NCBI GenBank assembly: GCA_038227825.1
Contig: JBBRPQ010000018.1
Coordinates: forward strand, 13,675-77,674
Length of the DNA stretch: 64,000 nucleotides
Reading direction: 5' to 3'
DNA from: Chthoniobacterales bacterium
Lineage (GTDB): Bacteria > Verrucomicrobiota > Verrucomicrobiia > Chthoniobacterales > Chthoniobacteraceae
Both the position numbers and the translations under genes were made by a program. Each line of letters begins with the position of its first letter. Position 1 is the first letter of the stretch. Below, piece after piece: positions 50,774-54,216 of this stretch. Below the pieces are notes generated by a model. It ran no database searches and was not told where the DNA came from. It worked only from the letters and a program-made list of their open reading frames with translations.

Positions 50774-51892
50774 TTAGTCGTGCGTTTCTTCCGCCTTCCA
50801 CGGCACGTATTCGCCCACGAACTTTTTCCGGAACTCCGCGAATGTCCCGGCCTCGATGTGCGTGCGGATGCGGCGCATGAGATTCAGGTAGAAGTGCAGG
50901 TTGTGCAGCGTGACGAGGCGCAGGCCGAGGATTTCGTTGGCCTTGAGGAGATGGCGCAGGTAGCCGCGGGCGAACTTCCGGCACGCGGGGCATTCGCAGC
51001 CGGATTCGATGGGGCCTTCGTCCATCGTGAACTCGGCGTTTTTCAGATTCAGCGTGCCGCGCTCGGTGAAGGCGGTGCCGTTGCGCGCGATGCGCGTGGG
51101 CAGCACGCAGTCGAATAGGTCCACGCCGCGCGCGACCATTTCCACGAGCTGCGGGGGCGTGCCGAGGCCCATCGCGTAGCGCGGCTTGTCGGCGGGCAGG
51201 AAGGGCTCGGCGGACTCGACGGCCTTCATCATTTCCGGCTCGGGCTCGCCGACACTCACGCCGCCGATGGCGTATCCGTCGAAGCCGATTTGCACGAGCG
51301 CCTCGGCGCTTTCGCGGCGCAGGTCGGCGTAGCTGCTGCCTTGCACGATGCCGAATTTCATCCCCGGCGTCTCGACCTGCTTGCACACGGCGGCCCACTG
51401 GAGCGTGAGCGCGAGCGACTTTGCGGCGTAGTCGCGCTCGCACGGATGCGGCGGGCATTCGTCGAAAAGCATGGCGATGTCGCTGCCGAGCGTGGCCTGG
51501 ATTTCCATCGCCTCGCGCGGACCGAGGAACATCGGCGAGCCGTCGAGGTGATTTTGAAAATGCACGCCCTCGGGGGTGATTTTGCGCAGCTTCGCGAGCG
51601 AGAAGACCTGGAAGCCGCCGCTGTCGGTGAGGATCGGCCGATCCCAGGCCATGAAGCGGTGCAGCCCGCCGAATTTGCGCATCACGTCCATGCCGGGGCG
51701 GACGAAAAGGTGATACGTGTTGCCGAGGATGATCTGCGCGCCGAGCTGCGTGAGTTCGTCCGGCGACACCGCCTTCACCGAGCCCTGCGTGCCGACGGGC
51801 ATGAACTGCGGCGTCTGGATGTCGCCGCGCTTCGTGCGAAGGATTCCGCGGCGGGCTTTGGATGAAGGATCGGTGCCGAGCAGTGTGAACAT
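50774..51892 (-). CDS. tgt: queuine tRNA-ribosyltransferase (tRNA-guanine transglycosylase)
   Basis: Start at MFTLLGTD. Motifs present: [36 protein letters not shown], the Zn site CECPAC, and HNLHFYLNLM. Confidence 0.9.
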   Translation of the reverse strand: MFTLLGTDPSSKARRGILRTKRGDIQTPQFMPVGTQGSVKAVSPDELTQLGAQIILGNTYHLFVRPGMDVMRKFGGLHRFMAWDRPILTDSGGFQVFSLAKLRKITPEGVHFQNHLDGSPMFLGPREAMEIQATLGSDIAMLFDECPPHPCERDYAAKSLALTLQWAAVCKQVETPGMKFGIVQGSSYADLRRESAEALVQIGFDGYAIGGVSVGEPEPEMMKAVESAEPFLPADKPRYAMGLGTPPQLVEMVARGVDLFDCVLPTRIARNGTAFTERGTLNLKNAEFTMDEGPIESGCECPACRKFARGYLRHLLKANEILGLRLVTLHNLHFYLNLMRRIRTHIEAGTFAEFRKKFVGEYVPWKAEETHD

Positions 51893-52152
51893 GGGGCGGA
51901 GACGATAGTCGGCGGCGATGCGGGATGAAGGACGAAAGTCGGATGAAATTTCGCCGTGAACGATGGCCTCTGCAATTTCGGCGGGCTTGGCTCTCCAGAG
52001 GCCGTGCAAAAGTGTGTTTGCTGTGCGATTCGCGCGTCGGGACTGAATTTGGAAGCCATGACACCATGAAATCCGTGCATTTGACTCTTCAGTTCCTGGA
52101 TTCATGGCTTCCAAATTCGATGCTGCGGATTTTTTGTACAGTCTCTCAGCGA

Positions 52153-52593
52153 TCAGGGACGGCGTCCTTCGTTCACCTCGTAGTAGTCGAAGAACGTCAC
52201 AAGGTCGGTGCGGTGCGCGAGACCGCTGGCGGCTTTGTAGGCTTCGAGTTCCTGCGTGGAGCCGTCGTCCTCGTCGCGCCAGCCGCGCTTTTCCATGAAC
52301 TTGTTCCAGACGAGCAGTTGCTCTTCCGTGGGGCGCGTGCCGCACGAGTGGCACCATGCGAGCACTTCGTCATCGTGGCCGCTTGCGAGCGTGCGTTCGC
52401 GCAGTGCGGGATACGTGACACCGAGCAGGCGGCAGCAGCGGGCATCGAAACCGTCGCCGAGATTCGCGTGGAAATCCGAGCGCAACTGGCCGGCGGCGTG
52501 GAGGCGTATTTTATCAAGCATCCTCGCGAAATAGACGAGGCCGCCGGTGCGATCATAGGCGCTGCGGGGGACGCGGTCGGCGGGCGGGTTCAT
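52153..52593 (-). CDS. DUF5069-like protein
   Basis: Start at MNPPADR. VPRSAYDRTGGLVYFARMLDKIRLHAAG matches my memory of the DUF5069 N-terminal pattern. Confidence 0.6.
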   Translation of the reverse strand: MNPPADRVPRSAYDRTGGLVYFARMLDKIRLHAAGQLRSDFHANLGDGFDARCCRLLGVTYPALRERTLASGHDDEVLAWCHSCGTRPTEEQLLVWNKFMEKRGWRDEDDGSTQELEAYKAASGLAHRTDLVTFFDYYEVNEGRRP

Positions 52594-52603
52594 CGTGGGA
52601 TGA

Positions 52604-53650
52604 TTACTTTGGCGGCAGCAATTGCGCGAGAGCCGCGGTCGCCCATGCGGTCGCGGCAGTGGAGAGGAATTGATGCTCACCATGCGGGTCGCCATTTTCG
52701 AAATACGGCTGCGCCTTGTGTTTCACGTGGGACTCGGTGAGCCACGAGCCGTCGGCGAGTTGTGTGCGGAGCAGGTAATCGCGGGCTCGCAATGCGGCCG
52801 CGTCATCCCGCGCAGTGCCGGTCTTGCAAAGCATGAAGACGGTTTGTCCGGTCGAGTAGGCGTCGCTTTGGCGAGCCTTGTCCTCGGCCCATCCGCCGTC
52901 CTCGCGCTGCACGGCGAGGATGGCTTCGCGCGTGCGCTGCTTCAGCGCATCATCGCCGCCGAGGTGATGCAGTCCCCACAACCGCCAGAGGCGATCCTGC
53001 TGATCGCGCAGCGGAATCTGCGCGAGCCATCGTTCCGCCGCTTCGCGCGCCTTTGCCACACGCGGGCGTTGCTCGGGTGTCGCGTATTTTTCCATGCCCA
53101 TGAGCACGAGGACGGTGTCGCCGATGAACGATGCCTGCATCGGCGCGCGCCTGCACGATGCCTGCCAGCGTCCATCCTCGGGCTTCGGCGCGCTGTCCGG
53201 CTTGCGATCGCTGAGCCGGGTGACGCCTTGGATTTGCAGCAGATACGCCACCATCGCCGTCGTGGTCTTGTCCGCCGGACGCTCGCCGAGGCTCAGTGCC
53301 CAAAAGCCGAACCCCGTCGTCGCCGCACCGCCGGGCACATGTTCGCCTTCGTCCATTTCTCCGATGCGCTGCTCGAAATACCGGTGCGTGGTTTCCGTCT
53401 GTGACTGGAGCCACGCCGCATCCGTCGGCAGCCCGGCGCGCGCCGACTCGATCATCGCGAGCATCGGCAGCGTCTGGTGATGGCAGGAAAAGCACGTCTT
53501 GTTTTTCTGCCAATTGCTCGCTGCGCGCACCACGAGGGCGAGTCCGCGATGCACGGCGTCCTCCATGCCCGGCTGCGCATCCAAAGCGGACGCGCGGAAT
53601 GCCAATGCGATCATCAGCACGGCGAGTCCGAGGTGGATGCGGGCGTTCAT
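52604..53650 (-). CDS. secreted prenyltransferase/squalene-oxidase-repeat (alpha/alpha toroid) protein with a CxxCH motif
   Basis: Start at [27 protein letters not shown] is present. Repeated Q..DGxW motifs occur ([17 protein letters not shown]). Confidence 0.6.
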
Positions 53651-53856
53651 GGAGTTGGAAGGAATTGCGCAGTGATGAACGGCGGGATGGGCGTTTCTTT
53701 GGGAGAACGAGGCGCTGCGTCCGCGTTTGAATGCCACATGTCCGGCGTGCGGGTCGTTCGCGCCATTCGAATGACTTGTTTCTCCCGCGTCCATTGCAAT
53801 CCACCTTCGTCGCAACCTTCATCCCTTCGAATTCTGCGAATCGTCTCCTCATTTTC

Positions 53857-54216
53857 CGGCGAGCCGTCGAGGTGGTTTTGAAAATGCACGCCCTCGGGGG
53901 TGATTTTGCGCAGCTTTGCGAGCGAGAAGACCTGGAAGCCGCCGCTGTCGGTGAGGATCGGCCTGTCCCAGCCCATGAAGCGGTGCAGCCCGCCGAATTT
54001 GCGCATCACGTCCATGCCGGGGCGGACGAAAAGGTGATACGTGTTGCCGAGGATGATCTGCGCGCCGAGTTACGTGAGTTCGTCCGGCGAGACGGACTTC
54101 ACCGAGCCCTGCGTGCTGACGGGCATGCACTGCGGCGTCTGGATGTCGCCGCGCTTCGTGCGCAGGATTCCGCGGCGGGCTTTCGAGGTGGGGTCGGTGC
54201 CGAGCAGTTGAAACAT
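53857..54216 (-). pseudogene. tgt: orphan 5-prime fragment of tgt (codons 1-120) with in-frame stop
   Basis: It is collinear with 51533..51892, with about 21 mismatches counted by eye over 360 nt. It reads MFQLLGTDPTSKARRGILRTKRGDIQTPQCMPV...[17 protein letters not shown]. The TAA at 54070..54072 replaces Gln codon 49. Confidence 0.85.

Follow-up and report, generated by a model that had tools for sequence, protein, structure and literature searches.

A dead copy of the tgt 5' end beside a working tgt in a Chthoniobacterales lineage: probable scar of recombination at an exchange hotspot

At a distance of 2.3 kb upstream of a working tgt gene in a Chthoniobacterales bacterium lies a second stretch of DNA that begins like tgt and then stops being so, raising the question of how the start of a housekeeping tRNA-modification gene came to be present twice with two other genes in between, and whether the outer copy still does anything. 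The locus was analysed within a window of 64,000 nucleotides, the whole stretch of DNA under study, and compared with the corresponding loci of relatives (given L numbers below).

The repeat, its contents and its joint

A repeat search of the window paired 51533-51832 with 53857-54156 at 96% identity, and alignment of the full repeat (51533-51892 against 53857-54216) gave 21 mismatches and no indels over 360 nt, an identity of 94.2%. Identity is collinear from the ATG to exactly 51533/53857, and the sequence past both ends is unrelated when aligned with MAFFT. The inner copy corresponds to codons 1-120 of the intact tgt. The outer copy, here termed R5, has its own ATG at 54216 and is interrupted in frame at codon 49 by TAA (54070-54072) in place of the CAG of live tgt. 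The initial annotation had described a 360-nt duplication of the tgt 5' end with approximately 21 mismatches, a dead outer copy with a stop at codon 49, tgt-like similarity ending exactly at 53857, and a DUF5069 gene and a prenyltransferase-repeat gene with nothing else between the repeats, all of which was confirmed. The features of this part of the window are as follows.

50774..51892, reverse strand: intact tgt, 372 aa, stop codon included in the span; Pfam TGT 4e-158, profile positions 2-355 of 357
51893..51940, reverse strand: leader A, 48 nt, tgt-proximal, beginning with GACTTTCGTCCTTCATCC; common to L004, L005, L006, L009, L011, L013 and L048
52153..52593, reverse strand: DUF5069 protein, 146 aa; Pfam DUF5069 3e-39
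52604..53650, reverse strand: prenyl, a prenyltransferase/squalene-oxidase-repeat protein, 348 aa; homologues so named by NCBI, with PF13243/PF13249
53735..53856, reverse strand: filler, 122 nt, running from the joint 53856/53857 to the part upstream of prenyl that is common to relic-free relatives (sequence comparison)
53857..54216, reverse strand: R5, dead copy of tgt codons 1-120 (repeat search, alignment)
54217..54259, reverse strand: leader B, an alternative tgt-proximal leader, here on the dead copy; homologous to the stretch immediately before tgt in L001, L003, L007, L008 and L092

Changes specific to R5 are F30C, G34S, A41S, one nonsense codon and two or three silent substitutions, F30C and G34S affecting positions that are invariant across 15 relatives. 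Eight of the 21 differences between R5 and tgt fall in the first 33 nt (binomial P = 3e-4), a clustering that is weakly informative because functional tgt genes likewise vary about twice as much there. The intact tgt protein is 92-96% identical to those of relatives L001-L008, and a sliding-window comparison with relatives found that the gene resembles L001/L002 along its entire length with no clear mosaic breakpoint.

The two genes between the copies form a conserved pair, being neighbours in L081, L083 and L084-L098, and the order prenyl-DUF5069-leader A-tgt is common without any relic (L048, L085-L090, L095-L097). The window prenyl protein's own Pfam match is sub-threshold, and the Logan gene call yields an identical protein; a metagenome scan with this protein returned three distant loci only, none of them near tgt. 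No integrase or transposase was detected when every gene of the insert and its surroundings was scanned against Pfam, the 2,324-nt unit being filled by two non-recombinase genes and the neighbouring genes being metabolic, and the insert had no match in plasmid and phage collections. Exact-protein look-ups for tgt, iorA and iorB returned no record, probably owing to other start codons having been chosen by gene callers.

In the alignment the joint at 53856/53857 is abrupt. No homologue of the adjoining filler was found in relic-free loci, and it is common to L092 and partly to L091. A MAFFT hint that the filler is a decayed ABC-ATPase 3' end, which would give a GCTCG microhomology at the joint, was rejected since local-alignment and fixed-length shuffle scores were at chance level. 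Logan contig L094 (run SRR19962015) covers 53905-51809, starting 49 nt inside R5 with an R5-specific base, crossing the joint and ending in intact tgt; a further Logan contig, L093, corresponds to window 43082-50873 at 99.99% and spans R3, an older relic described below. The same relic is also present upstream of prenyl in two assemblies from other samples, each with private deletions. In L091 (ENA ERZ27315112) the joint is identical, GGCTCGCCG being followed directly by AAAAATAAGGAG, and the relic lacks leader B and codons 1-22 through a 5' truncation, has an 87-nt deletion and is interrupted by a private nonsense mutation that turns CAG into TAG at codon 53. In L092 (GCA_039921915.1), leader B and tgt nt 1 to approximately 261 are kept, followed by a 115-nt deletion, nt 262-360 being lost. 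For the ior-facing side of R5 (54217-54600), second-assembly support comes from L092, for leader B only, and none from the same sample. The initial annotation had named an assembly artefact and a second full-length tgt paralog as the findings that would undo its reading; both are excluded, the former on short-read data by L094 crossing the joint and by the relic in L091 and L092. The duplication shared by R5 and tgt is neither chance nor artefact.

The flanks of tgt as an exchange hotspot

Comparison with relatives brings in five further features of the window.

61031..63439, reverse strand: core upstream operon (folE2 62558-63439, permease 61774-62526, ABC ATPase 61031-61777), which directly precedes tgt in relatives
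54435..54452, reverse strand: 18-nt exact copy of the leader A start, beside the ior islet; sequence present twice in the window (chance expectation 0.03)
54260..54434, reverse strand: 175-nt segment with a terminator-like hairpin (54400-54376) and then a T8 run
43415..50653, forward strand: five-gene island of low GC that separates R3 from the tgt stop (Pfam)
43166..43267, reverse strand: R3, older tgt 3'-end relic; codons ~335-369 (tblastn), plus a faint resemblance that extends to about codon 316

The core layout in relatives is folE2, permease, ABC ATPase and tgt, then convergent glyQS, and both sides of tgt vary in nearly every relative, where an ior operon, prenyl and DUF5069, restriction-modification or toxin-antitoxin genes are found. 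The ABC-ATPase stop and the start of tgt are 13 nt apart in L010, L012 and L014, roughly 50 nt apart in L003 and L023, and separated by 0.5 kb in L006, 1.8 kb in L048 and L085, 3.5-4.8 kb in L001, L002, L005 and L011, and 9.1 kb in the window, the contents of these intervals being unrelated between genomes; the distance between tgt and glyQS ranges from 20 nt to 7.6 kb. The flanks of tgt are a chromosomal exchange hotspot, in which the same core genes bracket unrelated accessory genes across genomes. The ancestral layout proposed in the initial annotation is upheld in that glyQS is convergent with tgt (e.g. L003) and the ior operon divergent from it (L011, L013), but the deeper state is that of co-directional folE2, permease, ABC ATPase and tgt, with the ior operon as one of many islets.

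Truncated gene ends, at least six in number, were found across related uncultured Verrucomicrobiota. In L004 a vapBC cassette is followed by a remnant of the tgt 3' end (codons 292-369), L005 and L084 have ABC-ATPase 3' relics, and the window itself has R3 and the 18-nt leader-A remnant; R3 and the ends in L004, L005 and L084 are all located at the borders of islets. R3 consists of 35 codons with 54% amino acid identity to tgt (43166-43267, tblastn), and its nucleotide core at 43208-43268 matches tgt of close relatives at 80-85% identity. A mere 21 nt separate R3 from the glyQS stop, near the native spacing, and a 3' relic near 43.2 kb, as first annotated, is accordingly present at its native distance. 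R3 is far more decayed than R5 (decay of approximately 17-20% against a difference of approximately 6% between R5 and the live gene), and the DNA adjoining the two relics differs in GC content (50-57% against 65%), which supports the earlier claim that they record separate events. The island next to R3 encodes an HAD-UbiA fusion, a GMC oxidoreductase, an SDR epimerase, a 564-aa membrane protein and a further SDR epimerase, with a GC content of 50-57% against 61-65% in its flanks.

The 18-nt copy at 54435..54452 is probably a second, shorter scar of the R5 kind, and the segment at 54260..54434 is probably the tail of an earlier islet. No homologue of the latter was present in any fetched locus, and an Rfam scan of 42.9-54.7 kb gave two sub-threshold matches only.

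Origin and decay of R5

R5 most probably represents the non-functional scar of a single recombination event at the exchange hotspot flanking tgt in this Chthoniobacterales lineage, a reading to which we assign a probability of roughly 0.78. The partners would have been two closely related chromosomes with different accessory islets and different tgt leaders, connected at one border by an ordinary homologous crossover and at the other by an illegitimate (non-homologous) joint, which fused tgt nt 360 to the spacer upstream of prenyl. The predicted product has the order leader B, tgt(1-120), spacer, prenyl, DUF5069, leader A and full tgt. Queuine insertion would have been retained because one tgt copy stayed complete, and the truncated copy has drifted since. 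By additive distances (5.8, 4.4 and 7.6%), relic and live gene had diverged by about 1.3% at the time the relic lineages separated. This makes the partner either the same genome or one very closely related to it; a conspecific donor would fit.

Three routes would lead to this product. Prenyl, DUF5069, leader A and the tgt 5' end may have been imported with tgt as the anchor, which is the reading of the initial annotation; a left-hand islet with a 360-nt tgt tail may have been imported with the folE2/ABC operon as the anchor and joined upstream of resident prenyl genes; or a Campbell-type single crossover may have taken place with a circularised fragment carrying tgt codons 1-120. All three yield one and the same arrangement, and either partner may have been the recipient. 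Of the earlier proposal of insertions into each end of tgt, the separate events at the two ends stand, but for R5 insertion into tgt is one of two equivalent readings, the order prenyl-DUF5069-leader A-tgt being widespread without the relic. A simple assignment of donor and recipient fails because the intact tgt is L001/L002-like but leader A is common to L004 and L048-like genomes, and an extra exchange or gene conversion, possibly a later conversion between the two copies, therefore has to be assumed.

The small divergence at the lineage split would also suit an origin within one genome, in which illegitimate exchange between sister chromosomes fused tgt nt 360 to the prenyl upstream spacer and doubled a 2.3-kb unit, and a homologous import afterwards put another islet and leader B in place of the first prenyl, DUF5069 and leader A, leaving tgt(1-120). 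Tandem duplication at microhomology is generally the commonest bacterial rearrangement, and the 5'-clustered differences fit a later crossover ending near nt 33. However, two events would be required before the split of the window and L092 lineages, both of which have leader B, not A, before the relic, and none of the relatives was found to have prenyl and DUF5069 in duplicate, so that this origin appears unlikely.

Persistence of the relic in three diverged lineages might instead reflect retention for a function, for example as a promoter or leader for prenyl and DUF5069 or as a 48-residue peptide, and R5 does immediately precede prenyl on the same strand, with a terminator-like hairpin before it that would shield it from transcription arriving from upstream. 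The pattern of change is nevertheless that of neutral decay. The three relics are 6.5-9.3% from each other against 4.1-7.2% from functional tgt of the same clade, a star-like pattern; the window and L091 have different nonsense codons (TAA at codon 49 and TAG at codon 53, respectively), and L091 and L092 differ in their deletions, which remove leader B with codons 1-22 and nt 262-360, respectively. All three relics share only nt 67-261 of R5, a segment that gathers replacements at invariant residues such as F30C and G34S, and relic-free relatives hold both genes without any such upstream element. A function is thus very unlikely, and R5 is a real, inherited scar with no sign of one.

Integrase-driven elements are known to duplicate the ends of their target genes, as with e14 and phage 21 in icd and with islands in tRNA or tmRNA genes, regenerating the target intact and leaving a displaced fragment at the far end of the insert. 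The bracketing of inserted DNA by direct repeats of tgt, the relics at both tgt ends with a third in L004 and the double occurrence of the 18-nt leader motif would all suit a small mobile island with tgt as its target and a replacement 5' end as part of its cargo. Such an island is nonetheless highly improbable, as the 2,324-nt unit has neither an integrase nor room for one, the relic boundaries vary from event to event (codon 120 in R5, codon 292 in L004, about codon 316-335 in R3), the repeat is 360 nt long and diverged (94%) rather than a short identical core, both genes occupy the locus without a repeat in many relatives, and plasmid or phage matches are lacking. A literature search for tgt as an integration site returned nothing relevant. 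No more probable is a dedicated cassette-capture site at the tgt flanks that operates without a resident integrase, with the conserved leader A start, present twice in the window at islet borders, as the recombination site; if it did exist, every capture event would restore tgt and displace older ends outward, and the stacked relics would record an undescribed specific mechanism.

A chimeric join or a repeat duplicated out of co-occurring strains is barely credible: the source is a metagenome-assembled genome from a sample that holds related strains, and Logan contigs end within repeated parts, but an independent assembler spans the joint with an R5-specific base, the joint or filler recurs in two assemblies from other samples with private deletions (and in L091 a private nonsense mutation), and the stop and invariant-residue changes of R5 mean that it is not another strain's functional allele.

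Relation to known kinds of recombination scar

A single recombination event between related chromosomes, our preferred origin for R5, has close counterparts. Homology-facilitated illegitimate recombination (HFIR) was reportedly described originally in Acinetobacter, Streptococcus pneumoniae and Pseudomonas stutzeri. R5 resembles its products in having one homologous border (here 360 nt of tgt, with tgt and the folE2/ABC operon as conserved anchors in all relatives), alternative genes trapped beside a conserved anchor and no recombinase gene, and its abrupt joint would match their second border, which lacks homology and typically falls at a microhomology of 3-10 nt. HFIR also presupposes a host that takes up DNA, by natural transformation or conjugation. 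It differs in that 360 nt of the anchor gene are duplicated, whereas classical HFIR usually deletes recipient DNA between anchor and joint (PMC3240628). Duplications of 109-950 bp of the homologous segment were obtained in E. coli conjugation from single crossovers of circular molecules with truncated homology, HFIR being rarer than such single-crossover duplications (PMC3240628). Campbell-type insertion-duplication likewise yields direct repeats of a homologous segment that flank the whole insert, with one truncated and one complete copy; the insert here, in contrast, is made up of ordinary chromosomal genes that occupy this locus in relatives as well, with no plasmid or phage match.

T6SS and Rhs loci have been proposed to accumulate orphan gene ends by serial displacement (PMC5361080). 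The Vibrio cholerae T6SS effector/immunity clusters and the orphan 3' regions of Rhs/CDI loci share with this locus a conserved upstream anchor, a variable downstream region, successive imports and remnants stacked on one side (PMC5361080), the corresponding stack in the window being the leader-A remnant, the 175-nt tail, leader B with R5, and the live gene. In contrast to those arrays, the relics here derive from a housekeeping tRNA-modification gene and not from toxins, and there is no obvious selection for keeping the displaced parts.

The R5 scar is of an ordinary kind, documented in detail at this locus, and reveals no new molecular system. Such scars show how accessory genes are swapped at chromosomal hotspots without mobile-element machinery, and this locus offers an unusually complete natural series, with one relic caught in three lineages at different stages of decay, that could be used to estimate the natural rate of imprecise one-sided homologous exchange and the speed at which relics erode. 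For annotation, the 48-codon open reading frame and the apparent 'second tgt' at this locus are not genes.

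Duplicated tgt 5′ end and its inheritance

Alignment of window positions 51533–51892 with 53857–54216 gave a direct repeat with 21 differences in 360 nt (94.2% identity) and no indels, of which a repeat search returned 300 nt at 96%. Identity is collinear from the ATG and stops exactly at 51533/53857, and the sequences on both outer sides are unrelated. The duplicated tgt 5′ end with a dead outer copy, and the presence of only two genes between the copies, are thus as described in the initial annotation:

50774–51892, minus strand: intact tgt, 372 aa, full-length Pfam TGT match (4e-158); its start is the inner repeat copy
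52153–52593, between the repeat copies: DUF5069 protein, 146 aa
52604–53650, between the repeat copies: prenyltransferase/squalene-oxidase-repeat protein (prenyl), 348 aa
53857–54216, minus strand: outer copy (R5), ATG at 54216, TAA at codon 49 (54070–54072)

R5 carries F30C and G34S, both positions being invariant in 15 relatives, and its specific changes (four replacement/nonsense, two or three silent) fit an absence of selection. Of the 21 differences from live tgt, eight are concentrated within nt 1–33 (binomial P = 3e-4); functional tgt genes also vary twice as much in this stretch (18% versus 9%), so the clustering gives no more than a hint of a mosaic boundary. Just downstream of the DUF5069 stop lies a perfect 17-nt inverted repeat (52045–52061/52102–52118, 40-nt spacer), which may be a terminator or regulatory hairpin preceding leader A (51893–51940) and tgt.

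The duplication is not an assembly artefact, three lines of evidence being in agreement. Two come from an independent assembly of run SRR19962015: Logan contigs L093 (described with the 3′ relic below) and L094. L094 matches window 53905–51809 at 99.95%, beginning 49 nt inside R5 with one R5-specific base, crossing the joint at 53856/53857, both genes and leader A, and stopping 84 nt into live tgt. Two assemblies from other samples also have the relic, again preceding the prenyl gene (92% identical). L091 (ENA ERZ27315112) retains tgt nt 67–360 and a joint identical to that of the window (GGCTCGCCG followed directly by AAAAATAAGGAG), with a private nonsense codon (CAG to TAG at codon 53), and is without approximately 87 nt of the spacer beyond the joint. 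L092 (GCA_039921915.1) has leader B (window 54217–54259) and tgt nt 1 to approximately 261, then a 115-nt deletion and the remaining spacer. These different lesions indicate that the relic was inherited and has decayed independently in each lineage. No second full-length tgt was found, which disposes of the initially considered truncation of a complete paralog. That R5 serves a function is very improbable, since its truncations and stops differ across the three lineages. The spacer segment missing from L091 (window 53747–53833) has short ACGA direct repeats on both sides, lower GC and two internal TTCGAA palindromes; it was either deleted in L091 or is a small insertion common to the window and L092.

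The three relics differ mutually by 6.5–9.3% (nt 67–360) and are closer to functional tgt of the same clade (4.1–7.2%) than to one another; from tgt of relic-free prenyl-bearing genomes they differ by 8.5–15%. Additive distances (5.8, 4.4 and 7.6%) place their common ancestor approximately 1.3% from live tgt, suggesting that the source of the copy was this genome itself or one very closely related to it; another possibility is that later gene conversion homogenised both tgt copies. In L088 (4600–5718), one assembly of a relic-free species, the tgt gene call is split into two ORFs (217 and 152 aa), through either a real frameshift or a mistake in the assembly.

Variable intervals flanking tgt

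A tgt search with one genome per species placed the window in the Chthoniobacterales (Verrucomicrobiota), with best matches at 92–96% aa identity. Whole-window comparison identified a conserved backbone: the block at window positions 30–36 kb, glyQS and tgt, plus the following genes at 61.0–63.4 kb:

61031–63439, minus strand: folE2 (GCHY-1), permease and ABC ATPase, co-directional with tgt

In relatives (L085, L095) these genes and tgt form one co-directional unit. FolE2 is GTP cyclohydrolase IB, which performs the first step towards preQ0, and the arrangement suggests a queuosine-linked operon, perhaps also serving precursor transport. In the window, 9 kb of islets (the variable accessory gene sets that flank tgt) separate the other three genes from tgt.

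Upstream interval (ABC-ATPase stop to tgt ATG) in the window and other loci
L010, L012, L014: 13 nt, no content
L003, L023: ~50 nt, no content
L006: 0.5 kb
L048, L085–L090, L095–L097: 1.8 kb, prenyl and DUF5069
L005: 3.5 kb, restriction-modification genes
L002: 3.8 kb, pilin-like genes
L001: 4.4 kb, other genes
L011: 4.8 kb, ior operon (likewise present in L013; gap figure for L011 alone)
Window: 9.1 kb, ior operon, R5, prenyl and DUF5069

Interval between tgt and glyQS
L003: 20 nt, no content
L007: 0.8 kb, vapBC
L008: 0.8 kb, a different cassette
L001: 2.4 kb
L085: 2.8 kb, other genes
Window: 7.6 kb, low-GC island (GC 50–57% versus 61–65%)

L084 has restriction-modification genes upstream of prenyl and no full-length ABC-ATPase gene within the retrieved flank. 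No integrase or transposase was found in or adjoining these variable segments of the window, and the inserted unit gave no matches to plasmid and phage records. A third variable interval of the tgt neighbourhood is window 36273–41184 (MFS transporter, two GFO/IDH/MocA oxidoreductases, luciferase-like monooxygenase), whose genes are missing between the conserved 30–36 kb block and glyQS in L001, L003, L007 and L008. glyQS is itself of two very different types (L003 and L085 versus window 41367–43133), with 93% versus 70–71% aa identity to the window; genomes with the two types nonetheless have tgt 94–95% identical, indicating that a flanking core gene has itself been exchanged.

The two tgt-proximal leaders are mutually non-homologous: leader A precedes live tgt of the window and is found in L004, L005, L006, L009, L011, L013 and L048, and leader B precedes R5 and is found in L001, L003, L007, L008 and L092. 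Further scars were observed. After tgt and vapBC, L004 (2409–2642) has a second copy of tgt codons 292–369 (94% identical to window tgt). At restriction-modification islets the ABC ATPase is reduced to its last 83 codons (residues 166–248) in L005 (6216–6464) and, upstream of prenyl, to its last 28 codons (residues 221–248) in L084 (7748–7831). Beside the ior islet, window 54435–54452 is an exact 18-nt copy of the leader A start (0.03 expected by chance). On the minus strand of 54363–54557 a sigma-70-like promoter match (54557–54528) is followed by this remnant and by an 11-bp hairpin with T8 (54400–54376), a putative orphan promoter-to-terminator unit that spans approximately 150 nt, lies between iorA and R5 and has no match in Rfam.

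Origin of the outer tgt copy

The anatomy of R5 is probably accounted for by a single event at a gene-exchange hotspot beside tgt (probability roughly 0.78), in which one side would be a homologous crossover and the other an illegitimate joint fusing tgt nt 360 to the spacer upstream of prenyl. The same product would result if a circular fragment with codons 1–120 had integrated by a Campbell-type single crossover. In E. coli experiments such crossovers yield duplications like that at R5, whereas true homology-facilitated illegitimate recombination yields deletions, unlike this locus (PMC3240628). In their stacked order the scars are reminiscent of serial displacement, a model put forward for T6SS and Rhs arrays (PMC5361080).

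Live tgt is L001/L002-like over its whole length, leader A and both genes are common to L004 and L048-like genomes, and the permease on the far side has 84% aa identity to L048 versus 51% to L001. These differing affinities indicate a mosaic, which fits both entry of the prenyl genes into tgt and arrival of a tgt-tailed islet upstream of resident prenyl. The initial interpretation was partly right: its observation stands, and insertion into tgt is one of two readings of the direction that fit equally well.

A tandem duplication whose first unit was later replaced is unlikely: two events would have to precede the split between the window and L092 lineages, and the intermediate was not found among the loci examined. 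Integrase-driven integration is very unlikely, since a recombinase is absent, relic boundaries vary and many relatives have the same genes without repeats. R5 does not represent a new system: it is a well-documented yet ordinary scar left by recombination at a gene-exchange hotspot.

The 3′ relic and the low-GC island

The 3′ tgt relic reported at approximately 43.2 kb is real, though far more eroded than R5:

43166–43267: tgt 3′ relic (R3), 35 codons, 54% aa identity (tblastn)
43415–50653: low-GC island (50–57%) with HAD-UbiA fusion, GMC oxidoreductase, two SDR epimerases and a 564-aa polytopic membrane protein

In its nucleotide core, R3 shares 80–85% identity with close relatives' tgt, a value that drops as phylogenetic distance grows, indicating a relic native to this clade. 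The distance from its end to the glyQS stop is 21 nt (7 nt in L003), which puts it at roughly the native position. Its decay, three to four times that of R5, places its origin in an older event, separate from that of R5 as initially proposed. The DNA that produced R3 may differ from the present island, because islets here are evidently replaced via exchange anchored in the flanks. Logan contig L093 of SRR19962015 matches window 43082–50873 at 99.99%, covering the glyQS end, R3, the entire island and the tgt 3′ end.

A sub-threshold Rfam match to the 'queA RNA' motif (43497–43584, plus strand; 27.1 bits versus a gathering score of 52.6, E = 0.13) adjoins R3 within the start of the HAD-UbiA gene and is probably due to chance. 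The 564-aa membrane protein has no Pfam match. Judged by its domains, the gene set of the island looks like a donor pathway for a polyprenyl-phospho-sugar (decaprenyl-phospho-arabinose-like) with a putative GT-C-type transferase. The closest homologues of the island's last gene are approximately 75% identical, the source genome's own sequence excluded.
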